DNA of 12,000 bases from the NCBI GenBank assembly GCA_044356295.1, contig JBIKWN010000072.1:1-12000 (forward strand), read 5' to 3'. Below the pieces are notes generated by a model. That model worked only from the letters and a program-made list of their open reading frames with translations. It searched no databases and was not told the origin of the DNA. Both the position numbers and the translations under genes were made by a program. The stretch is from Bdellovibrionota bacterium (GTDB lineage: Bacteria; Bdellovibrionota_C; UBA2361; JBIKWN01). Shown here one piece after another: positions 1 through 11,483 of the stretch. Numbering within the stretch: position 1 is the stretch's first letter; each line of letters starts with the position of its first letter.

Positions 1-99
1 GAGGGGCATATTAAGCCATTGAACCCCTTTGAAGGTGATGGAAGTTTAGAAACCTTAAAAAAAATTCGCCTCGGCAAGGTTTCTCTTGAACGAAAAGAT
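1..99 (+). repeat. Exact direct repeat, copy A (copy B at 9231-9329); may extend beyond the window start
   Basis: Base-by-base identity from gaggggcata to cgaaaagat, offset 9230 bp; the next base differs (a vs g). Confidence 0.97.
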
Positions 100-147
100 A
101 TATTTCATTGGTACAAGGTAACTCGGATTAATGAATACTTTCGATAG
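1..147 (+). pseudogene. Truncated duplicate of the peptidoglycan-binding-domain gene at 9072-9590 (5' end outside window)
   Basis: Bases 1-99 are identical to 9231-9329 and in the same frame (EGHIKPLNPFEGDGSLETLKKIRLGKVSLERKD). The sequence then diverges, reads into the 68-bp element (IFHWYKVTRINEYFR) and stops at TAG 145-147, so the C-terminal PG-binding domain is missing. Confidence 0.75.
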
Positions 148-177
148 TTTAAATCACAATAAAAGTTACCCTGTACC
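110..177 (+). repeat. 68-bp intergenic element with terminal inverted repeats, copy 1
   Basis: GGTACAAGGTAACTCGGATTAATGAATACTTTCGATAGTTTAAATCACAATAAAAGTTACCCTGTACC. The ends GGTACAAGGTAACT / AGTTACCCTGTACC are 13/14 complementary, extending to TT/AA at 108-179. Identity is 57/68 to copy 2 and 58/68 to copy 3. Confidence 0.92.
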
Positions 178-387
178 AAGATCATTAGTGATGAAAATTA
201 GCATTTGAGGAAAAGAGGTAGATTTCAGCAGAAACTATGGAAATAGCATAGATGTCTAAGCTATAGAACTTTGGTTGAACAATGAATACTTTCCGAACGT
301 CATTTGATTGCCCATCCATTTAACAAAGTTTCACTCATGTAATTATCCAAAAACATCGATAAAAGTCTTGATAAAAGCGAGATTTGC

Positions 388-3300
388 ATGATTCTTTCAA
401 AAAGAAAAAAAAGAACAAATTCACTAATAATTAAGACAAAAAATCTTGGATTTGTATTTCTATTATCACAAATATTTTCAGTAACCGCTGCGTTTGCATT
501 ACCAGAGCAGCTCGCACTGAATAATCTACAAGAAAAAAATCTACAAAATGTTACACAACCAAAAAAACAAGATCTACCAAAAGAAGTAAATAAAGGATGG
601 TATGCAAAAGTAACCAGCCAGATTGAAGCCGATGAGTACAAGGGAACTTTTCAATCAAAAGATAACTCTGGAAAAAAATTTAAAACACCAAAGATTCATT
701 TCACTAACAGACAACAAAAAATAAGAGCATATATCTCTGATACAGAATATCTAATAGTACCATCGGAAGTTAGCGACGAAAAAAGCCAAGTTCAAAATAC
801 AAAATGGCAATGGTCATATTCTTACGCAGGACTAGTCCGAGACGGAAAAACTTTTGAGTCCAAAGGAAGTAATCTGAAAAACAAAATAGAAATTACAGCA
901 GAAGGCAATGCTTCAATCAAGAAATCAGAAAACGTAACAGAGTGGTACAAAAATTCTAAAGTAGGACTTGAACAAGGATTTACAATTAATCAAAGAGTTG
1001 GTGCAACAGAAAGTAAAGGTGAACTTATAGTTCGTGGATTTGTAAATACAGATTTAAAAGTAAATGCAGCATCTTTAGATAAGATAATTTTTTCAGATAA
1101 TTCAAAAGATATAATTAGCTTTTCAAATATCAAGGCATGGGACAGTAAAGGCACCACACTTCCTGCAAGCATTAAGTACTATAAAGACAAAAAAAGCGGG
1201 AAGAATATCTATGATCTCGTTGTTAATGATGTAGGTGCAATGTATCCAATTATTGTAGATCCGCTTGCGACATCTGCCGCTTGGACATCAGAGTCAGATC
1301 AAGCAGATGCTCTCTTTGGCTACTCAGTATCAACAGCAGGAGACGTAAATGGTGATGGATATTCAGATGTGATTGTCGGCGCGGCTTACTATACCAACGG
1401 TCAAACCTATGAAGGACGAGCTTATGTGTACTTAGGGAGTGCAAGTGGTCTAGCAACTACTGCAGCTTGGACAGCAGAATCGGATCAAGAAAATGCATAC
1501 TTTGGATATTCAGTATCAACGGCAGGAGACGTAAATGGAGATGGATATTCAGATGTGATCGTAGGGGCCTATCAATACGACAACGGAGAAAGCAACGAAG
1601 GACGAGCGTATGTGTATCTAGGGAGTGTGACTGGTCTAGCAACAACCGCTGCTTGGACAGCAGAATCAGATCAAGCAAGTGCTGAGTTTGGCCTTTCAGT
1701 CTCAACAGCAGGAGACGTAAATGGAGATGGATATTCAGATGTGATTGTCGGGGCGGCTTACTATGACAACGGAGAAAGCAACGAAGGACGTGCGTTTGTG
1801 TATCTAGGGAGTTCGAGTGGTCTAGCAACAACTGCTGCTTGGACAGCAGAATCAGATCAAGCAAATAGTTGGTTTAGCTTTTCAGTATCAACAGCAGGTG
1901 ACGTAAATGGAGATGGATATTCAGATGTGATCGTAGGGGCCAATCAATACAACAACGGAGAAAGCGACGAAGGACGAGCGTATGTGTACCTAGGCAGTGC
2001 AAGTGGTCTAGCAACGACTGCCGCTTGGACAGCAGAATCAGATCAAGCAAATGCTAACTTTGGCTACTCAGTATCAACAGCAGGAGACGTAAATGGAGAT
2101 GGATATTCAGATGTGATCGTAGGGGCCAATGAATACAACAACGGAGAAAGCGACGAAGGACGAGCGTATGTGTACCTAGGCAGTGCAAGTGGTCTAGCAA
2201 CAACTGCCACTTGGACAGCAGAATCAGATCAAGCAACTGCTTACTTTGGCTATTCAGTATCAACAGCAGGAGACGTAAATGGAGATGGGTACTCAGATGT
2301 GATTGTCGGGGCCTATCAATACGACAACGGACGTAGTAACGAAGGTCGAGCGTATGTATACCTAGGGAGTGCAAGTGGTCTAGCAATAACTGCCGCTTGG
2401 ACAGCAGAATCAAATCAAGTAAATGCTGTCTTTGGCAATTCAGTATCAACAGCAGGAGACGTAAATGGAGATGGATATTCAGATGTGATTGTTGGGGCAC
2501 TTTTCTATGACAACGGAGAAAGCAACGAAGGACGCGCGTATGTCTATTATGGTAGCGCCGATGGGCTGTCAACTTCTTCTGCGTGGACAGCAGGCTCAAA
2601 TCAAGACACTGCTCTCTTTGGCACATCAGTATCAACGGCAGGTGACGTAAATGGAGATGGATATTCAGATGTGATTGTTGGGGCACGTTTCTATGACAAC
2701 GGAGAAAGCAACGAAGGACGAGCGTATGTGTACTTAGGCAGTGCAAGTGGTCTAGCAACGACTGCCGCTTGGACAGCAGAATCAGATCAAGCACATTCTT
2801 ACTTTGGCTATGCAGTATCAACAGCAGGAGACGTAAATGGAGATGGGTACTCAGATGTGATTGTCGGGGCCTATCTATTCGACAACGTACAAACCGACGA
2901 AGGACGAGCCTATGTGTATCTAGGGAGTGCAAGTGGTCTAGCAACAACTGCTGCTTGGACAGCAGAATCAGATCAAGTAACTGCTTACTTTGGCTATTCA
3001 GTATCAACAGCAGGTGACGTAAATGGAGATGGATATTCAGATGTGATTGTCGGGGCCTATCAATACGACAACATAGAAAACAACGAAGGACGAGCGTATG
3101 TGTATCTAGGGAGTGAGAGCGGTCTAGCAATAACTGCCGCTTGGACAGCAGAATCAGATCAAGTAAATGCTCTCTATGGCAATTCAGTATCAACAGCAGG
3201 AGACGTAAATGGAGATGGATATTCAGATGTGATTGTCGGGGCCAATCAATACGACAACGGAGAAAACAACGAAGGACGAGCGTATGTATATCTAGGGAGT

Positions 3301-4740
3301 GCAAGTGGTCTAGCAACGACTGCAGCTTGGACAGCAGAATCAGATCAAGCAACTGCTAACTTTGGATATTCAGTATCAACAGCAGGAGACGTAAATGGAG
3401 ATGGGTACTCAGATGTGATTGTCGGGGCTGCTGACTATGACAACGGAGAAACCGACGAAGGACGAGCGTATGTGTATCTAGGGAGTTTGAGTGGTCTAGC
3501 AACAACTGCTGCTTGGACAGTAGAATCAGATCAAGTAAGTGCTGAGTTTGGCTATTCAGTTTCGACAGCAGGTGACGTAAATGGTGATGGATACTCAGAT
3601 GTGATTGTCGGGGCTGTTTACTATGACAACGGACAAAACAACGAAGGTCGAGCGTTTGTGTATCTAGGCAGTGCGAGTGGTATAGCAACAACTGCTGCTT
3701 GGACAGCAGAATCAAATCAAGCAAATAGTTGGTTTAGCTTTTCAGTATCAACAGCAGGTGACGTTAATGGAGATGGATATTCAGATGTGATCGTAGGGGC
3801 CCCTTACTATACAGGCGGACAAATCAACGAAGGACGAGCGTATGTCTACTACGGCAATAATGGCGTCAGTTTAGATATTATTCCTCAACAGTTAAACAGC
3901 CTCTCTACACGGATAGAAACTCTTGGAAGATCTAATACAAATGCTTTTAAGATACGTATGCTTGCAAGGCCAGCAGCAGGAAGAACACGAACAAGACTTG
4001 TATATGAAGTAAAACCATTTGGAACAGCTCTAACCGGAACAGGACTTGGATATAGTAGTTGGGTAACAACTGGCTTAACTGGAACTTCAATTGAGCAATC
4101 TATTTCTGGATTAACATTCAGCACCGCATATCATTGGAGAGCAAGATTACAATATTTTCCGTACATGAATTATGGAGCATGGTTCTCTTCGGGAAATAAC
4201 GCAGCAGCAGAGCAGGATTTTAAAGCTGGTGCCGCTCCTACGCCTACAGCAACACCGACGAATACTCCGACAACAACACCTACACCTACTGTGACACATA
4301 CAGCAACAGCGACGAGCACTGCGACAGCAACACCTAGCGCAACACCGACAAGCACTGCGACACCAACACCTACAGCAACACCGACAAGCACTGCGACAGT
4401 AACACCTAGCGCAACACCGACGAGTACTGCGACAGCAACACCAACCGAAACCCCAAAGCAATGCTTCAATGGAAACCTACCCAAGGCAAAAATTTCAATT
4501 AAAAAGCGAAACGCAACTATCACACTACCAAGATCAATTAGACCTTCCAAAGAATGTGTTATTAGTGCGAAAGCGACTCGAACAAAACCTAACAACCGAA
4601 AAACTAAGGGATTTGGATCGAAGTCATCGACTGTAATTTCGAAATTAAGTAAAGGTAAATGGAAGTTTAGCTACATTGTTAAAACAATGTCGCTTGGTAC
4701 AAGTCAGGAAAGCTCAAATCGAACCATAGTTGTTAAATAA
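388..4740 (+). CDS. Large secreted FG-GAP (integrin alpha-like beta-propeller) repeat protein, probable adhesin or surface protein
   Basis: 1450-aa ORF. Basic N-terminus plus hydrophobic stretch ending AFA-LP (signal-peptide-like); ~250-aa N-terminal domain; 14 repeats of [23 protein letters not shown]...EGRAYVYLG with Ca2+-binding DxNxDGxxD loops; a beta-rich, possibly Fn3-like segment (YHWRARLQY); a Pro/Thr linker; a Lys/Arg-rich C-terminal domain. Confidence 0.93.
1276..3855 (+). repeat. Intragenic tandem array of 14 x 186-bp (62-aa) FG-GAP units, last unit partial
   Basis: The motif ggagacgtaaat recurs at 1339, 1525 and onward with a 186-bp period; [18 protein letters not shown] occurs 14 times without variation in the translation. 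Confidence 0.96.
4231..4455 (+). repeat. Low-complexity Pro/Thr/Ala linker repeats (PTATPT-like)
   Basis: Translation [41 protein letters not shown]...; recurring DNA blocks such as acacctagcgcaacaccgac and agcactgcgac. Confidence 0.9.
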
Positions 4741-4757
4741 AAGTTTTAGAAATAATA

Positions 4758-4825
4758 GGTGCAACGTAACTCGGATTACTTAATACTTTCAGTGGTTGAA
4801 ATCACAATGAAAGTTACTCTGTACT
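4758..4825 (+). repeat. 68-bp intergenic element with terminal inverted repeats, copy 2
   Basis: GGTGCAACGTAACTCGGATTACTTAATACTTTCAGTGGTTGAAATCACAATGAAAGTTACTCTGTACT. Lies 17 bp after the FG-GAP stop codon, between convergent genes. 58/68 identical to copy 3, with which it also shares flanks (aaataat... and ...aaatcgttt). Confidence 0.92.
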
Positions 4826-4862
4826 AAAATCGTTTCAGTCTTTTTTCTTCTAATGAATCAAT

Positions 4863-6071
4863 TTAATATTCTTCAGGAACAGAAATTCTAGATTTAACCA
4901 TGGTCTGTTCCTCAGGAATCAAAACTCCTGCTTTATATGGTTCTCCATTACAATGTACATTAACAGCAATCCAACCTTTGTTAGTGATAGAGTTAGCCGA
5001 TTTAATCATATTTTCAACCTGGGGTCTTTGAATTTTATCACAAATAGCGAAATTACTGACCAAGGTTTGAAGTAAATAACCTTTGCCGTCCATCCATAAA
5101 GCACCTCCCGAATACCCCTGCGGATTTCCAAAAGCTCCAACAACTATTTCAGAATCATTGATATCTAAAGGGGTAGGGTAGGCGTTCGATAAATCAGTTG
5201 TGCCTCCAAGTGTGGGTAGCGCTGTAACGACTCCCTTTTTAAGTAAATATCCTCCCGAATTAAAATCTAACCAGAATTGTCCTACTACTACACTATCTTT
5301 TTTATCATTGATAGCAACAGCAGTGCTTTTAGTTCCCGACCCGAGCAGGTTGATAGGAGGGATACGAAATGAGTAAACCCCGGCATTATTTTTCTCCCAA
5401 AGAACGCCTACTTTTCCTCGCCCTCGAGCGTTTTCGTCACACCATCCAGCTATAACGCCATAATCATTAATCGATGATGCAGAACAATGCGATTTTCCAT
5501 TAGGAACCGGAAGAAGAGTTGTAGAGTTATTTTCATATATAAAACCCCGGAGATAATCATTCCCATTGATGTTAACTCCGGTAGAACCGATCACGCTTTT
5601 AAGATTATTCACATCATTAGCACGATTAGAGAAAGAGTTATGTGCCAAGCCTGGGATTACTGACGGGGAACCGTTACGCCAGATCAAAGCAACACTGCCA
5701 GACGTAACGGTTCCGTAAGTTCCACCCACTGCTATGCCATTTCTTGACCCAAATACTGAGAATTTCATATTTGAAACTGGGACATTCAAAAGTTTAAACC
5801 CACCGTTTATAACATTTGAGATCATAAGATATGAGAAAGGAGAAATAGTATTATTAGCACTTGGCGTCCAGCCATACACATTACCGTCATCTGAGATTGT
5901 TAGTGCCTCACTACCAGCATTAGTACCAGAACTGCGATCTTCAAATGAACCAATCATGACAAGTTTATATTTTGGAGGGGTAGGAGTAAGAGGGATAGTA
6001 ATCACTTGGGCAAGTACAATTTTCGAAATGCAAAAAACAGATAAAAAAGATCCAACAATATATTTATTCAT
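4863..6071 (-). CDS. Secreted protein with HAF-like extracellular repeats (probable beta-propeller)
   Basis: 402-aa ORF with signal-peptide-like N-terminus (MNKYIVGSFLSVFCISKIVLA-Q). Recurring motif S-x-A-x-x-IND-x-G-x-VVG (ANDVNNLKSVIG, ASSINDYGVIAG, AVAINDKKDSVVVG, PLDINDSEIVVG, ANSITNKGWIAV), plus a LPTLGG segment typical of HAF-family extracellular repeats. Confidence 0.75.
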   Translation of the reverse strand: MNKYIVGSFLSVFCISKIVLAQVITIPLTPTPPKYKLVMIGSFEDRSSGTNAGSEALTISDDGNVYGWTPSANNTISPFSYLMISNVINGGFKLLNVPVSNMKFSVFGSRNGIAVGGTYGTVTSGSVALIWRNGSPSVIPGLAHNSFSNRANDVNNLKSVIGSTGVNINGNDYLRGFIYENNSTTLLPVPNGKSHCSASSINDYGVIAGWCDENARGRGKVGVLWEKNNAGVYSFRIPPINLLGSGTKSTAVAINDKKDSVVVGQFWLDFNSGGYLLKKGVVTALPTLGGTTDLSNAYPTPLDINDSEIVVGAFGNPQGYSGGALWMDGKGYLLQTLVSNFAICDKIQRPQVENMIKSANSITNKGWIAVNVHCNGEPYKAGVLIPEEQTMVKSRISVPEEY

Positions 6072-6128
6072 AAGAGTGATGTGAGCCCTGTATTTTAGAC
6101 ACCGACTATTCGTTATATTAGGAGGTGT

Positions 6129-6377
6129 ATGACAAAGCGATATTCGAGTGAGATTCGAACGGAAGTACTTGGCAAGATTAGAGGTGGGAAGCGCGTTGTA
6201 GAGGTAGCGAAGGAGTACGGTATTAATGATATGACAATCCGTACGTGGCTAGAGCGAGATACTGAAGTTGGCGGATCGCAAAGCCTAGAGCTTAGCCGTC
6301 TAAAAAGGGAGAACGAAGCACTGCTTCGAATTGTAGGGCAGCTGACATACGAGAGTCGGTTAGCAAAAAAAAATTAA
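6129..6377 (+). CDS. IS3-family transposase OrfA (HTH DNA-binding)
   Basis: 82 aa. MTKRYSSEIRTEVL...VVEVAKEYGINDMTIRTW matches the HTH_Tnp_1 pattern; coiled-coil ELSRLKRENEAL; strong RBS AGGAGG at 6120-6125; ends at an A9 run. Confidence 0.9.
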   Translation: MTKRYSSEIRTEVLGKIRGGKRVVEVAKEYGINDMTIRTWLERDTEVGGSQSLELSRLKRENEALLRIVGQLTYESRLAKKN

Positions 6378-6381
6378 TACT

Positions 6382-7278
6382 GTGCAGCAAGCATCCAAAG
6401 GGAGCAAAAGCTCCCTTGCGATAGAACTTGGTATTTCAAGAGCCAGTCTGTATTACCATCCAAAAATTCCTGAGAAAGACGAATTACTTCGAAAACAGAT
6501 AGAAGAAGTAATGAGAGCACATCCAGGATACGGGTACCGACGCGTAGCGCTTGCTCTTGATATTAATCACAAACGCGCAAAGCGCGTGATGAAGAAATTT
6601 AATCTAAAGCCGGCACGCAGAGCAAAAACACCAAAGAAACCAAATGATCTCGGAAAAGCACATGCTCACTATCCTGATATGCTGTCGAAATTATCCCCCG
6701 TTATTCCGGATTTCGTATGGGTAAGTGACTTTACCTATATAAGCTTTAAAGGCACCTGGTACTATCTAGCAACTGTGCTTGATGCGTTTTCTGGAATGAT
6801 ACTTGGGTTTAATATATCACGGACGCATGATGCAACTTTTGTAAAACGTGCAATTCAAAGAGCTGTTACGGTGGTTGGAAAACTCCCGCAGTGGTTCAAT
6901 TCCGATCAGGGTAGTGAATATCATTCAGATGAAGTTTCTCTGTGCCTAGAGATGCAAGGAGTTAGTATCTCGATGTCACCAAAGAGTTCCCCTTGGAGAA
7001 ATGGTGCTCAAGAATCTTTCTTCGGAAGGTTTAAAGTAGAGTTTGAGGACCCAGATAGATTTCATTCACTTGGTGAATTTCTTGAGGCTATCTATACCCA
7101 CATTCATTACTTCGCTTACGGACGTATAAAAAATAAATTAAAAATGACGCCTGCTGAGTTTAGGGAAAATTGGTTTTCCACACATGCACACAGGTATCCA
7201 CAGGTTATGAGTCTCCCCCCACACCCCCCTCATGCTGCGCCTTCGGCGCAGGGTACACGACTACTACTTTTTGAGTAA
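6382..7278 (+). CDS. IS3-family transposase OrfB (DDE integrase core)
   Basis: 298 aa. YGYRRV HTH-like motif; catalytic motifs WVSDFTY (D), FNSDQGSEY (D) and NGAQESFFGRFKVE (E...K). The frame is open from 6364, overlapping the A9 run at the end of orfA. Confidence 0.93.
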   Translation: MQQASKGSKSSLAIELGISRASLYYHPKIPEKDELLRKQIEEVMRAHPGYGYRRVALALDINHKRAKRVMKKFNLKPARRAKTPKKPNDLGKAHAHYPDMLSKLSPVIPDFVWVSDFTYISFKGTWYYLATVLDAFSGMILGFNISRTHDATFVKRAIQRAVTVVGKLPQWFNSDQGSEYHSDEVSLCLEMQGVSISMSPKSSPWRNGAQESFFGRFKVEFEDPDRFHSLGEFLEAIYTHIHYFAYGRIKNKLKMTPAEFRENWFSTHAHRYPQVMSLPPHPPHAAPSAQGTRLLLFE

Positions 7279-7301
7279 TGTTTGTCTAAAAAAGGGGGTC
7301 A

Positions 7302-7307
7302 TTGACA
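7302..7307 (+). promoter_or_regulatory. Outward-facing consensus -35 hexamer (TTGACA) at the tip of the IS right inverted repeat
   Basis: TTGACA forms the last 6 bp of IRR. IS3-family elements are known to carry a -35 in IRR that builds a junction promoter in the circular intermediate. Confidence 0.55.
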
Positions 7308-7617
7308 CTTTTCTTCCTTCCTCTTACCAACACTATTCCCTTGGTTAATACCACGAGACTAGTAGGTTATCAGATTACATAAAATGTTCATTTTCCAGTG
7401 AACCTTTACAGGGCGGACTGCCAGGTGACGAGCTATACACCGAGCCAAAGGATTAACAAAAGCTGATAATTACAAACATCAGAATCCTAATAATATGCTA
7501 ATTAACATCGAAATCCTCAAGAATTTCAGCAAGTTGAAAAATATAGGGGTTATTAGAATTATGATATGTTACACCTACAAAATCAGATTTCATAACGGAT
7601 CTTAGTATTGAAATAAT

Positions 7618-8163
7618 TTGGAGCTATGTACATATATGGTAGATTTTGGTGATAGACATAAAATAGAGTTAACCCTAAAAGACCTAAAACAACTCGATAA
7701 CTCCAGGCTAGCCATCGCCCTTGATTGCACAGACAGTGAAACACGATCTGCCGTAGAAAAAATAATTGCGCAGAATCCAAATAAAGATTGGGTGATTGGG
7801 GACTTATTAAATCCACAACCCTTATCCCTAAGCTTATCTTTCTACAAAAGCCTTCCCGAAGAATCAGCCGCAGCCATTGATAAACTAAGAAGAGATTTTT
7901 TCGGACGCTACCCAATAGAAAGTTATTCGAGCTTAGAAATTTTAGTATTAAGAGAGAAAACGATGCCTGCCATTGAGGCACAAAGCCGCAAGTTACTGAA
8001 TGAACGAAAAATAAATCCCGGACTTTCCAAGATTCTAACTGGCGACCCTCTAAAAAAAATAATCTTAGACCCTGGAGGTAATTTCGTTCCAATTCGAAAA
8101 ATTCACATCGATCCTCCAATCACATTAGGCAAATTGCCCAAATTGGGCGATTCTAATGATTGA
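7618..8163 (+). CDS. Hypothetical protein (true start may be ATG at 7636)
   Basis: 181-aa ORF with protein-like composition filling the gap between the IS and element copy 3; GGAG at 7620-7623 precedes the in-frame ATG at 7636. No recognised domain. Confidence 0.65.
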   Translation: MELCTYMVDFGDRHKIELTLKDLKQLDNSRLAIALDCTDSETRSAVEKIIAQNPNKDWVIGDLLNPQPLSLSLSFYKSLPEESAAAIDKLRRDFFGRYPIESYSSLEILVLREKTMPAIEAQSRKLLNERKINPGLSKILTGDPLKKIILDPGGNFVPIRKIHIDPPITLGKLPKLGDSND

Positions 8164-8187
8164 CCCAACCAATCAGGAAAAATAATT

Positions 8188-8255
8188 GGTACAATGTAAC
8201 TTGGATTACCTAATACTTTCAGAAGTTTAAATCATAATGAAAGTTACCCTGTACC
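8188..8255 (+). repeat. 68-bp intergenic element with terminal inverted repeats, copy 3
   Basis: GGTACAATGTAACTTGGATTACCTAATACTTTCAGAAGTTTAAATCATAATGAAAGTTACCCTGTACC. Lies between convergent stop codons at 8163 and 8288; aligns without gaps to copies 1 and 2. Confidence 0.92.
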
Positions 8256-8287
8256 TAAATCGTTTTTTTCTGCCAAATTCACAAATA

Positions 8288-8791
8288 TTAAGGTTTAAAT
8301 TCCTTGATTGCTTTTGCAATGTTTACTCGAAGATCCTCATCTGAATATGGCCCTTTAATCGGAACTACTACAGTTGAGATCTGATCCTTACCATCTTTAT
8401 CTTTAATATGTTTAGTAAATTCCATACGTACTTCTTGTAGTATGCCCGTCTTTTTGTCTATTACTCCTTTAATCAACATTTCATATCCATTTTTACGAAG
8501 TTCTAGAATCGCTTTTTGTGTCTCTACGTCCCCGGGATTATTACCCATGGAACCGTAATAAAATACTTGTTTGAATTGACCGACACGGACTTTGGTGTTC
8601 TCCGAATCCACTACTGTCGAGTTTACTATGAATTCAGGATTCATTTTATGTACAGTGAATGTCGGAAGCTGTCCATTCTGACCCTGCATTTGTTTCAGTG
8701 TTAAGGACTTGTCAATTGAAGGAAGTTGTTTGTGTGCAATGAGATCTTGAGAGAACTGGGAAAGTGTAGTTTCTGACTTTGTTGCTACCAT
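8288..8791 (-). CDS. Hypothetical protein
   Basis: 167-aa ATG-initiated ORF with soluble-protein composition; no recognised domain. Confidence 0.7.
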   Translation of the reverse strand: MVATKSETTLSQFSQDLIAHKQLPSIDKSLTLKQMQGQNGQLPTFTVHKMNPEFIVNSTVVDSENTKVRVGQFKQVFYYGSMGNNPGDVETQKAILELRKNGYEMLIKGVIDKKTGILQEVRMEFTKHIKDKDGKDQISTVVVPIKGPYSDEDLRVNIAKAIKEFKP

Positions 8792-9071
8792 AACGAAGAC
8801 TCGCTAAAAATAACCACATATCTTTTGATCTTAAGTATTTGTATCAAGAAAAGAATATTACCAGGTGAAAGAGTTAGTATGTTAAGAGGATTATAGGGAT
8901 TAAGGCACAATCTAGGTTAAATTCTTAGTGTGTAGGCCGGTAAATGGTGTAAGTGGTGATTCTACTGCTTTGTGGAAAACATAAAAAACTTTCGTCATCC
9001 TCCTTCAAGTACTTAGAGTTTCTTAGTTTTGGAATTATTTCATTTTAATAACTGTTAACTTATCTGAATTT

Positions 9072-9590
9072 TTGCCGATTTTACCATCTCTGATGGGAAG
9101 TCGAGATACAAAAGAGAGTAAAATGCCTGAGAGTCCTTTTAAAGGGCAGTCTTTACCAAACTTAAAGGATAGTTCGCTTCCTCGTGCTTCGCGAACAATG
9201 TCGCTTCGATCAAGAAGTCCATCAAACAAAGAGGGGCATATTAAGCCATTGAACCCCTTTGAAGGTGATGGAAGTTTAGAAACCTTAAAAAAAATTCGCC
9301 TCGGCAAGGTTTCTCTTGAACGAAAAGATGAAGGAGGTGTCATGATTCTTGTAAAGCAGAAACTAAATGCGTGGCTTGGAACAAATGAAGATTTTAAGAG
9401 AAGTACAATGCTACCTCTGGATGGAATTTTTACAGCTAAAATGAAACTAGTCGTGAAAGCATTTCAAAAAGAAGCGTTTGATAAAGGCATCCGAAAAAGT
9501 GAACCAAATGGGATTGTCGATAAGGAAACACTTCTTGCACTTGAGAAGTCTATTAATCAAAAACCAGGAAAGAAACAACTGAGCCCTTGA
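9072..9590 (+). CDS. Protein with C-terminal peptidoglycan-binding domain (PG_binding_1-like); start may be ATG 9093 or 9123
   Basis: C-terminal pattern G..V.LVKQKLN...LDGIFTAKMKLVVKAFQK...PNGIVDKETLLAL matches the three-helix PG-binding motif (DG.F...T..AV..FQ....DGIVG..T...L). The N-terminus is Ser/Pro/Arg-rich and probably disordered. Confidence 0.75.
   Translation: MPILPSLMGSRDTKESKMPESPFKGQSLPNLKDSSLPRASRTMSLRSRSPSNKEGHIKPLNPFEGDGSLETLKKIRLGKVSLERKDEGGVMILVKQKLNAWLGTNEDFKRSTMLPLDGIFTAKMKLVVKAFQKEAFDKGIRKSEPNGIVDKETLLALEKSINQKPGKKQLSP
9231..9329 (+). repeat. Exact direct repeat, copy B (copy A at 1-99)
   Basis: Identical to window bases 1-99. Confidence 0.97.
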
Positions 9591-9632: not shown

Positions 9633-11483
9633 ATGTCAACCGAGGCTCACCCATTAAAATCTAAAATAAGTGCTTTTCCAAAAACCCCGGGTGTCTACAT
9701 CATGAAAGATTTTGATGGTGTCATTATCTATATTGGTAAAGCAAAAGACTTGCGCGCCCGTGTGAAAAATTACTTTGGCGTAGGTGATGGGCGTATTCAG
9801 ATTCAATACCTCATAAAAAAAGTTAGTACGATTGATTATGTTATTACTCAAAATGAAGGGGAAGCACTCCTCTTAGAGCGAGAACTAATAAACAAAAATA
9901 AGCCCCGATATAATATTCGTCTTAAAGATGATAAAGCATATATATCAATTCGGATAAATCGAAATCATCCTTGGCCGCGACTTGAAACTGTTCGAAGAAT
10001 TATTCCCGATGGTAGTGAATATTACGGCCCCTATATCAATTCCTATAAATTGCGAGAACTACTGGAAGTAGTAAAGCGCGTTTCGCCACTTCGTACCTGT
10101 ACTGATGCTGTTTTTTCAAACCGTGCTCGCCCATGTTTAGAGTATGAAATAAAAAGATGCTCTGGCCCTTGTTGTATTCCGGTAGATCGTGAAGCGTATG
10201 AAGGTTGGTTGAAAGATGCAATTTCAATCTTAGACGGGAAAATTGAACCGATAATTTCATCACTTGAAAAACAGATGGAGTTTTCTTCTCAAGATTTACG
10301 TTTTGAAGAAGCTGCCGCTATTCGAGACCGTATTGAAACTCTGACGAGCTTTCATGCAGGTGAGCAGCAATCACTGACCTATGATTTTACTTGTGATGTT
10401 TTTGGTTTATACCGAGAAGAGGATTTGGTCGTTATTGCAGTGATGCGTTCACGTGACGGGCGTCTTCATGAAGTTGATACGTACAGCCTTAAGGATGTTC
10501 AGATTGGTAATGATGAAGTTTTAGAGGCGGTGATCCCTCAGTATTATGAAAGTGGGCATGATGTTCCGGCTGAAATAGTTCTTCCAATTCCTTTGGCTGA
10601 GAATAATTTATTAGAAGCACTTTTTGAAAAGCAATTTGATAAAAAAGTTTTATTCACAGTTCCAGACCAGGGAGCCAAACACCGCTTAGTGAGAATCTGT
10701 GAATTAAATGCAAAGCAGGCTTTTCAAAATAAATTTTTCTCTGAAGCTCGTTTTGATTCTATTAGCGAAGTATTACAGGAACGTTTCCAGTTACGACAAG
10801 CTCCACGAACAATAGAATGTGTTGATATTTCAAATTTACAAGGGTCAGACATTGTAGGGGCAGTGGTTGCATTTAAAGATGGAATTCCAGATCGAAGCCG
10901 ATACCGACGCTTTACTATTTCTTTTAGTGGATCCCCAAATGATTTTGAAGCAATTCATGAAGTAGTAACCAGACGACTTACAAAAGCTGATCATTTACCA
11001 GATTTACTTATTATTGACGGAGGTTCACAGCAGCTTCGGCGAGCATTAGATGCTCGAGATTCGTTAGGACTAACACTAGATATTATTTCACTAGCTAAAA
11101 TTAAAGTTGAAAAAAGTAAAGGGAAAGATGTTCTCTCTCACACTCTTGAGCGAATCTTTATTGAGGGTGGTGGTTCTTCAATTCCTCTTGATGGTTCCGA
11201 TTCAGTAACACAGTTCTTACAAAGGGTAAGAGACGAAGTACATCGATATGTTATTACGTTTCACCGACAGAAAAGAAAAGCGCGAGTTTTTCGTTCAGTA
11301 TTAGATGATATCCCAGGGGTGGGGGAAGAGCGTCGCAAAAGACTGTTAACTGAGTTTTCATCGATTCAAGGAATTTCTGAAGCTCAGGTTGAAGTCATCG
11401 CCAAAGTTGGTCGAATGCCGTTAACGCTTGCCGAAAAAATTAAGCAGATATTGTCAGATCATATTATGAACGATACGAAGTAG
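9633..11483 (+). CDS. uvrC: Excinuclease ABC subunit C
   Basis: 616 aa. N-terminal GIY-YIG (PGVYIMKD...IYIGKAKDLRARVKNYF, EALLLERELINKNKPRYNIRLKDDK); Cys cluster (RPCLEYEIKRCSGPC); UVR domain (LRFEEAAAIRDRI); RNase H-like domain (ECVDISNLQG, PDLLIIDGG, RVRDEVHRY); C-terminal HhH (LDDIPGVGEERRKRLL). Confidence 0.98.
   Translation: MSTEAHPLKSKISAFPKTPGVYIMKDFDGVIIYIGKAKDLRARVKNYFGVGDGRIQIQYLIKKVSTIDYVITQNEGEALLLERELINKNKPRYNIRLKDDKAYISIRINRNHPWPRLETVRRIIPDGSEYYGPYINSYKLRELLEVVKRVSPLRTCTDAVFSNRARPCLEYEIKRCSGPCCIPVDREAYEGWLKDAISILDGKIEPIISSLEKQMEFSSQDLRFEEAAAIRDRIETLTSFHAGEQQSLTYDFTCDVFGLYREEDLVVIAVMRSRDGRLHEVDTYSLKDVQIGNDEVLEAVIPQYYESGHDVPAEIVLPIPLAENNLLEALFEKQFDKKVLFTVPDQGAKHRLVRICELNAKQAFQNKFFSEARFDSISEVLQERFQLRQAPRTIECVDISNLQGSDIVGAVVAFKDGIPDRSRYRRFTISFSGSPNDFEAIHEVVTRRLTKADHLPDLLIIDGGSQQLRRALDARDSLGLTLDIISLAKIKVEKSKGKDVLSHTLERIFIEGGGSSIPLDGSDSVTQFLQRVRDEVHRYVITFHRQKRKARVFRSVLDDIPGVGEERRKRLLTEFSSIQGISEAQVEVIAKVGRMPLTLAEKIKQILSDHIMNDTK

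Follow-up and report, generated by a model that had tools for sequence, protein, structure and literature searches.

A hairpin repeat bordering variable gene modules in Bdellovibrionota is probably a REPIN-like partner of a RayT-like transposase

What are the short repeats that divide contig JBIKWN010000072.1 of a Bdellovibrionota bacterium (assembly GCA_044356295.1) into gene modules? This contig, C90, is complete at 12 kb (12,000 nucleotides, nt); we analyzed all of it and call it the window. It carries three ungapped 68-nt copies of one sequence, at 110-177, 4758-4825 and 8188-8255, all on the + strand and all intergenic. An earlier note on this DNA had described three co-oriented sites at gene boundaries, and the description holds exactly, in coordinates as in pairwise identity (57/68, 58/68 and 58/68). 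The note went on to propose that the sites belong to an undescribed cassette system. We find that they are members of a family of hairpin elements of about 85 nt, here called E. In our judgment, at a probability of roughly 0.78, E is a non-autonomous element whose partner, a RayT-like HUH-tyrosine (Y1) transposase, has its gene elsewhere in the genome. It resembles the REPINs (doublets of repetitive extragenic palindromic, or REP, sequences forming hairpins) and the MITEs (miniature inverted-repeat transposable elements).

Every genome compared here is a fragmented metagenome-assembled genome (MAG), that is, a metagenome bin. The source genome, G000, comprises 2.96 Mb in 128 contigs with 38.6% G+C; its sister species is called G002. 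Open reading frames (ORFs) were called mechanically. Any function ascribed to E below is putative.

The likeness among the window copies reaches beyond 68 nt to about 86-88 nt (copy 1, 102-189; copy 2, 4750-4837; copy 3, 8180-8267; all on the + strand). Over this length 68-74 of 86 positions are identical, and the copies match one another within the genome at BLAST E-values of 2e-18 and 4.5e-17. Each contains a hairpin of the form GGTACA-x-GGTAACT ... AGTTACC-x-TGTACC. The stem has an outer part of 6 bp (GGTACA/TGTACC), a one-base mismatch and an inner part of 7 bp (GGTAACT/AGTTACC), closed by a loop of about 40 nt. Across 21 genomic copies the arms, GGTACAAGGTAACT and AGTTACCCTGTACC, lie about 40 nt apart and form 12 consensus pairs; in copy 1 they occupy 110-123 and 164-177. 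E hairpins fold more stably than shuffled sequence, with z-scores from -1.6 to -5.7. The single arm of 14-16 nt has no internal self-complementarity except GTAC and reads as two direct half-sites, GGTACA and GGTAAC. The earlier note took the fixed length of the sites as a sign of spacing-dependent protein binding, which is a weak argument because the family has indel variants (5 of the 21 aligned copies). A covariance model, R1, built from these 21 copies (alignment A2), retrieves the window copies at E-values of 9.5e-20, 1.0e-18 and 3.0e-21, respectively. Copy 2 begins 12 nt past the stop of a gene encoding an FG-GAP repeat protein (4740), between this gene and the convergent ORF 4863-6071. 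Copy 3 begins 19 nt past the stop of ORF 7618-8163, which converges with ORF 8288-8791. Immediately before copy 1 stands a truncated duplicate, derived from the 5' half of gene 9072-9590.

The arms of E recur at the ends of a transposase unit. A search of G000 for Y1 (HUH) transposases returned several genes of about 320 amino acids (aa). One of them, at C79:2655-3620, encodes a 321-aa HUH-tyrosine transposase and is flanked by the same inverted repeats that make up the E arms, TGGTACAAGGTAACT and its complement. To its left lies TTGGTACAAAGTAACT (2596-2612) and to its right two inverted copies of AGTTACCTTGTAC(C) (3846-3862 and 3893-3910). The orthologous unit on contig C212 of G002 is bounded by a perfect inverted repeat, at least 16 nt long (22 nt by eye), that contains the E arm. 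We applied the 16-mer flank-frequency test of Bertels et al. to the C79 gene. The exact 16-mers reached at most 5 counts, being rare because the C79 arm carries a substitution, and a relaxed 13-mer was used instead. In the genome this relaxed arm motif is confined to the E copies, the C79 transposase gene and two stray sites. A paralogue at C8:3343-4341 is flanked by inverted arms of its own, different from these, and relatives elsewhere in the order share outer termini of the form TGGTAC.../...GTACCA with variable inner parts. The arrangement is that of a REPIN, which excerpts of the primary literature define as a hairpin made of a motif and its inverted copy, where this motif is also found beside the gene for a REP-associated tyrosine transposase (RAYT) (Bertels & Rainey 2011; PMC3116915, PMC3337134).

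Is the enzyme itself related to RAYT? It matches the NCBIfam profile NF047646, 'REP-associated tyrosine transposase', at an E-value of 8e-10 over profile positions 1-144 of 146, and one source names its relatives 'REP element-mobilizing transposase RayT'. The HUH and Y...NP residues (H60, H62, Y121, N125 and P126) are invariant in 30 family sequences. A sequence search against the PDB found no match for the transposase. Among PDB entries, Foldseek places the predicted structure, which has a predicted local distance difference test score (pLDDT) of 90.8, closest to 4er8_A, the complex of E. coli RAYT with a REP hairpin, with 153 aligned columns and a target template-modeling score of 0.72 (E 1.4e-6). 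The next fold matches are ISDra2 and IS608 TnpA; the C-terminal 170 or so residues are without a match. Of 91 genomes from the order, 71 carry the family, each with 1-13 copies. In G000 the full copy on C79 is accompanied by a 96%-identical partial copy on C8. For the transposase unit, identity between G000 and G002 is 95% at the DNA level and 98% at the protein level, compared with 70-83% DNA identity for core genes. Several short G000 contigs are 95-100% identical to G002 sequences. These are either mobile DNA common to both species or the result of mis-binning, which bears on the near-identity of the transposase unit.

The distribution of E is that of a dispersed repeat with a narrow host range. 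R1 was run on 41 genomes. It finds 24 distinct full-length E loci in G000, plus fragments, and 17 in G002; the other 39, a third member of the genus (62% complete) plus 38 representing 20 further families of the order, yielded none. A scan of 185,579 species genomes with the exact-arm pattern returned only records titled 'MAG: Bdellovibrionota bacterium', and a metagenome scan yielded four short contigs. As far as these sequences tell, the family is restricted to the genus. Outside subscription journals we found no description in the literature of the E family or of gene-containing REPIN arrays. None of the 25 copies found by nhmmer at scores of 25 or higher falls within an ORF of at least 70 aa; where they touch one, the overlap is 4 nt at most. 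They are spread over at least 12 contigs, and some adjoin the core genes ileS, acrB/tolC, uvrC, a yajQ-like gene and flagellin genes; this scatter speaks for a REP/MITE-like element. The population is dominated by a 'master sequence' with many identical copies, and mean column identity is 81%. The loop, too, is identical in many copies from G002 and the metagenomes, and none of the 12 hairpin pairs shows a compensatory (double) change. By the earlier note's own account, a match to the ends of a known insertion sequence (IS) or scatter through the genome beside core genes would count against cassettes. Both are largely borne out: the arms match the termini of a transposase unit that the genome itself carries, and several of the scattered E copies neighbor core genes. 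As a separate observation, two flagellin genes with FG-GAP propeller inserts (C113:5707-7530 and C12:20156-22003) each have an E within about 220 nt.

Because the arms are the inverted repeats of the transposase unit, and because the enzyme's structure matches a RAYT bound to REP, E is best read as a REPIN/MITE-like element. The direct observations are the identity of the arms, the intact HUH and tyrosine motifs, the RAYT-like fold, the extragenic multi-copy spread and the master-sequence population.

How, then, did E come to stand between genes? Many copies are grouped. Contigs C28 and C27 are adjacent by comparison with G002, and the end of C27, in reverse complement, is the same 89 nt that open the window. 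From this adjacency and overlap, the window is probably the right part of a region of about 25 kb. That region would hold ten E copies in a single orientation (10/10), with the window probably continuing to the left into an array of six. All nine strong copies in C28, C27 and C90 are of subtype A; 11 of the 12 elsewhere in G000 are of subtype B or mosaic. G000 has further arrays on C23 (three and two copies) and C12 (three), and G002 on C142 (four plus one inverted), C112/C214 (at least five) and C84 (two). The two copies around the 4.25-kb C84 module are sisters that share private variants. The closest relative of a copy is another from its own array, and therefore arrays grow locally. One unit, E-ORF157-E, is found at two loci (C23:67031-68013 and C113:3410-4351) with 87% identity over 872 nt; the likeness begins with the left-hand E and is taken up again in the right arm. 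Otherwise the cargo of different modules is unrelated and mostly without family. ORFs of about 160 aa recur between E copies, and we considered whether they might form one family, such as a hidden transposase. We rejected this idea: only those of C23b and C113 are related, the other seven are not, and Pfam assigns no family to any. On short contigs the orientation of E agrees with GC skew at nine loci, disagrees at two and is mixed at one in G000, with four concordant and five discordant loci in G002. The clustering that the earlier note looked for is thus present, and the clusters are co-oriented. The arrays are scattered over many sites, however, and are linked to an HUH transposase rather than a tyrosine recombinase.

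E copies also lie where genomes differ. Among 14 G002 copies only 17% of the DNA within 1 kb on either side has any BLASTN match in G000, and all 14 have at least one unmatched flank. Five lie exactly at the switch from conserved to species-specific DNA. Control stretches were 81-100% matched, a biased baseline since they were chosen for synteny. Copies stand at, or within about 100 nt of, the borders of strain-level and species-level insertions, and the arrays of the two species occupy different chromosomal sites. The C112/C214 array of G002 fills a gap that in G000 measures 325 nt and is free of E; comparison of G002 contig C221 with C72 reveals a 1.8-kb insertion holding a 400-aa ORF and one E; and in G000 a 7.9-kb insertion beside ileS begins with E copies. 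The strain comparison suggested in the earlier note did turn up variants with breakpoints at the element, read from metagenome contigs 94-99% identical to G002. Two strains differ by an 887-nt indel of 'cargo + E' with a 9-nt direct repeat on its flanks, one of the E-E modules comes in a shorter form, and an extra inverted E in one strain is missing in another. A lone arm-like motif, TAGGTACAGGG, was noted directly after the stop of a conserved gene (C27:8935-8955 and G002 C8:4722-4747), at the exact end of synteny between G000 and G002.

The insertions have a recurring anatomy. An E marks the end of the insertion, and 0-30 nt beyond it comes a diverged second copy of the target sequence that lies at the other end. 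The duplicated stretch measures 128 nt in C221 (94.5% identical), 45 nt in C112/C214 (91%) and 61 nt in C142 (98%), all in G002, and 9 nt in the strain-level indel between G002 C24 and metagenome contig L078. In the window, together with C27, it is about 320 nt long: 1-99 plus C27:1-311 against 9009-9329. Window positions 1-99 (+ strand) are an exact copy of 9231-9329, codons 54-86 of gene 9072-9590, and the reading frame of this duplicate ends inside E copy 1. The second copy of the target, 9009-9329 (+ strand), covers the upstream region and 5' half of that PG_binding-like gene and is 93.6% identical to C27:1-311 in reverse complement. Most of the insertions are one-ended, with E at a single border, and the flank duplications are of very unequal length. 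The idea that the sites delimit modules is supported, in that breakpoints between strains and species fall at or next to E; a site-specific cassette system is not. The association of E with variable gene modules is real.

Several observations weigh against our reading. The enzyme scores 38.8 bits with NF047646, where the cut-off is 80, and 19.3 bits with Pfam PF01797 (Y1_Tnp), where it is 23. At 321 aa, with an unexplained C-terminal half, it exceeds classical RAYT genes, which an excerpt of the literature puts at about 500 bp (PMC3337134). To judge from its sequence, the transposase unit looks IS-like and horizontally mobile, rather than like a RAYT as described in such excerpts, where the cognate gene is single-copy and vertically inherited. 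The E arms are not themselves palindromic and no GTAG-type tag was seen, whereas each REP singlet is described, again in excerpt, as an imperfect palindrome with conserved flanks (PMC3337134). Partial E copies are broken at many different positions, and this scatter argues against a precise crossover point. For solo E copies no transposition, excision or empty and filled site was seen, and no target-site rule was found. At the ileS-side insertion the E lies about 100 nt from the border, and a search for a flank duplication at word size 7 found none. Finally, the join between C27 and the window depends on one overlap of 99 nt in a fragmented MAG.

By analogy with RAYT and the IS200/IS605 enzymes, the transposase would bind the E hairpin in single-stranded DNA and would cut and rejoin beside it, spreading E. 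Copies accumulate co-oriented in hypervariable, species-specific regions, where arrays grow locally. On the route that the evidence favors most, foreign or rearranged DNA would enter at or beside an existing E and duplicate a variable stretch of target, often including all or part of E. This could happen through a Campbell-type single crossover with a circle that bears E, its flank or both, or through repair at the hairpin; the outcome would be E-cargo-E units plus duplicated flanks. Entry of this kind would explain the co-orientation, the sister copies around cargo, the half copies with their scattered breakpoints and the duplicated flanks, and it would also explain the duplicated flanks of classical REPIN clusters. 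The transposase may take part, or E may act only as portable homology or a fragile site. Alternatively, strand-specific, single-strand transposition alone may set the orientation.

The same facts invite other explanations. An integron integrase that scores above its curated cut-off is encoded on C38 (intI, 358 aa, TIGR02249 429 bits), and E might be a second type of attC site, gathered in CALINs (clusters of attC sites lacking integron-integrases) and recombined by this IntI. The hairpin does hold AAC...GTT inside its arms, C27 genes and E are co-oriented with E 0-120 nt past stop codons, and one E lies inside the CALIN on C128, adjoining a decayed copy of a C38 cassette. The R'' and R' boxes of attC sites have the consensus RYYYAAC and GTTRRRY. 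In the corresponding boxes of E, AGGTAAC...GTTACCC, the AAC and GTT cores are present, only one of three Y and one of three R positions fit, and the conserved outer stem extends beyond them. The intI array and at least six other attC clusters use a different site, YAACAA...AAACGTT, whose stems vary and compensate, while E is conserved in sequence without compensatory pairs. R2, a model of the local sites built on 11 of those next to intI, picks out 39 attC sites spread over ten contigs and none at E positions, those on C90, C27, C23, C63, C113 and C12 included. The C23 flanking genes, moreover, are antisense to E, and the arms belong to an HUH transposase unit. We rejected the attC candidate on the failure of the local model and the lack of compensation, and hold it to be very improbable. 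A site of the Xer/dif type, marking module boundaries like pdif, is less probable still. The loop of E contains GGTTAAAT, resembling the XerD arm of dif, and the best match of E to the 28-nt E. coli dif is 15/28, in a genome whose maximum is 20/28; on this match we rejected it. Furthermore, pdif modules are bounded by inversely oriented sites, whereas E copies in arrays are co-oriented, and no Xer gene lies near any E array. E is neither an integron attC nor an Xer/dif site. With the scatter, the transposase-end arms and the separate kind of attC sites, the earlier proposal of an undescribed integron- or pdif-like site-specific system is not supported. A further suggestion is that E is mainly an RNA element co-opted by the host, a 3' stabilizer or terminator, whose place at gene ends reflects that role rather than mobility. 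The hairpins are stabler than shuffled sequence, and copies 2 and 3 and those on C27 begin 0-120 nt past stop codons. Yet no T-run follows the hairpin, a simple terminator scan does not flag E, an Rfam search of the window at E up to 1 found no match, and on C23 and C12 the neighboring genes lie antisense to E or downstream of it. We consider this role improbable.

More weight is due to the possibility that E-bounded modules are true mobile cassettes, circles of the form E-gene-E or gene plus E that the RayT-like enzyme or RecA would excise and reinsert at another E. The premise is that two co-oriented E copies give the segment between them the same left-arm/right-arm layout as the transposase unit. 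It draws on the E-ORF157-E unit at two loci, the sister copies around the C84 module of G002, the 887-nt indel, cargo that is unrelated between modules and the 10/10 co-orientation of the inferred C28-C27-window region. Only a single duplicated module was found, however, the breakpoints of partial copies are scattered, and one-ended insertions with unequal flank duplications fit homologous or illegitimate recombination better than precise transposition. The earlier note had suggested a search for excised circles. We compared the window with four lake-water runs, available as short assembled contigs only, so that uncovered parts of the window carry no meaning. No usable evidence of circles, and no circle junction, came from the run contigs. 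Their joints 178>4751, 4833>4748 and 4834>8180 link E copies over 34-68 nt only and may stem from other E loci; they are therefore no evidence of excision. We regard such mobile cassettes as unlikely. Equally doubtful is the broader proposal that E copies are the capture or delimiting sites of a gene-cassette platform run by the RayT-like HUH transposase and/or by recombination between repeats. New DNA would enter such a platform at an E already in place, duplicating E and the target next to it; co-oriented arrays of unrelated accessory genes would build up in this way, and E-gene-E units could travel as composites. If true, this platform would be a functional analogue of integrons using the single-strand hairpin chemistry of a different enzyme class.

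The genes of the window are varied. The cargo of module 1 is the FG-GAP gene (388-4740, + strand), which encodes 1450 aa. Its 14 tandem 186-nt units (1209-3926) are 66-89% identical to the reference copy, and the product is probably a length-variable surface protein; run-contig depth is uneven along the gene. Module 2 contains a gene for a 402-aa protein (4863-6071, - strand) with a weak match to DUF3466, below the cut-off. It also contains an IS3-family IS (6074-7307, + strand; orfA 6129-6377, orfB 6382-7278; HTH_Tnp_1 and rve domains) unrelated to E, and a hypothetical ORF of 181 aa (7618-8163, + strand). A contig from run X3 covers exactly 6074-7307 and is unlike the window sequence on either side. 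Module 3 holds a hypothetical 167-aa ORF without family (8288-8791, - strand). Beyond it lie the 172-aa gene with a weak PG_binding_1 match (9072-9590, + strand), whose 5' half is the duplicated target, and the core gene uvrC (9633-11483, + strand), where the variable region ends. In contigs from runs X1 and X4, at a depth of about 2, position 8188, where the arm of E copy 3 starts, is connected back to 6033, just left of the IS3 element, with ATTT between. This joint could be a tandem-duplication or circle junction of the segment holding the IS and the 181-aa ORF, or an artefact. Another X4 contig is near-identical to the window over 7369-8178, has 118 extra letters directly before E copy 3 and diverges after 8216, inside E; it is a strain variant with breakpoints at and within this copy.

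The genome carries other repeats as well. The integron on C38 (54059-64500) is complete and chromosomal; behind intI come no fewer than 13 cassettes, whose attC sites are of the classical kind, and the region between intI and the cassettes contains three palindromic ATCTGTGGTTAT...ATAACCACAGAT boxes. Clusters of attC sites without an integrase occur on C125, C51, C15, C69, C25 and C128. An ORF6N-domain cassette of the array (C38:58134-58871) is found again beside E at C128:93185-93922, with 90.7% identity; there its attC boxes have decayed, AAC to ATA and CGTT to CTTT. The commonest 16-mers of G000 (up to 88 counts, both strands) belong to another palindromic family with the 9-mers CGCGAAGGT/CGCGAAGTA, often at contig ends (for example, C38:66505-66569 and C113:14615-14713), so that the genome has at least two families of hairpin repeat. 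A set of 16-mers counted 67 times and containing CCCCGCGCACGCGGGG looks like a type I-E-style repeat of clustered regularly interspaced short palindromic repeats (CRISPR), and the genome probably holds a sizeable CRISPR array.

To our knowledge, work on REPIN-RAYT systems has been confined almost entirely to Pseudomonas and enterobacteria, where they are viewed as vertically inherited, gene-free intergenic passengers. The E family sits in uncultured, predatory-type bacteria and departs from the classical kind in its long, multi-copy enzyme, its non-palindromic arms, its near-identity across species and its gene-containing arrays with long duplications. If E is active in gene gain and loss, it would offer a second, non-integron way to assemble arrays of accessory genes and a practical marker of hypervariable loci in MAGs. 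If the copies are mere passengers, they are a warning that co-oriented hairpin repeats between genes do not prove an integron-like system.

How does E compare with systems already described? Like attC arrays and CALINs, it provides co-oriented hairpin sites between unrelated, mostly small genes of no known family, in a genome that bears an integron. Unlike them, it conserves sequence rather than structure, belongs to a different site family, occupies many chromosomal sites, and is found with genes in both orientations, long target duplications and an HUH transposase instead of a tyrosine recombinase. In MITE-bounded units, such as the integron mobilization units and similar cassettes of Acinetobacter and Enterobacter, and in the minimal mobile elements of Neisseria, short repeats or conserved flanks bracket exchangeable accessory genes. 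The former depend on a DDE transposase and have fixed target-site duplications; the latter exchange by plain homologous recombination between conserved genes. E differs from both as an HUH-type hairpin repeat at one border, with duplicated flanks of 9 to about 320 nt. As a MITE does with its IS, E has its terminal inverted repeats in common with an autonomous element of its own genome. A MITE also leaves a target-site duplication of fixed size. The duplications beside E-ended insertions measure 9, 45, 61, 128 and about 320 nt, and we found no filled and empty pair for a solo copy.

The IS200/IS605 elements (IS608 and ISDra2 TnpA; PDB 2vjv, 2xm3) resemble the present system in their HUH-Y1 fold, hairpin ends and short derivatives consisting of the ends only. 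Here there is no TnpB partner, and no target tetranucleotide was identified. IS200/IS605 elements have a different subterminal hairpin at each end in place of a single long terminal inverted repeat. Their mechanism is strand-specific and uses single strands, which could give local co-orientation.

The closest likeness is to REPIN-RAYT. Here too, two inverted copies of a motif of about 15 nt form a hairpin around a spacer; the element is extragenic, multi-copy and lineage-specific, with a dominant master sequence; its motif flanks an HUH-Y1 transposase gene; clusters have duplicated flanks; and the best structural match of the enzyme is a RAYT bound to REP (PDB 4ER8). The differences are that the enzyme is twice as long (321 aa), falls below curated cut-offs and belongs to a multi-copy family, and that its unit is near-identical between two species and probably present twice. 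Classical REPIN clusters, as excerpts of two papers describe them, are tandem units within extragenic space with duplicated flanks, the largest exceeding 700 bp (PMC3116915, PMC3337134). E arrays, unlike these clusters, hold whole genes between co-oriented copies and are spread over kilobases.

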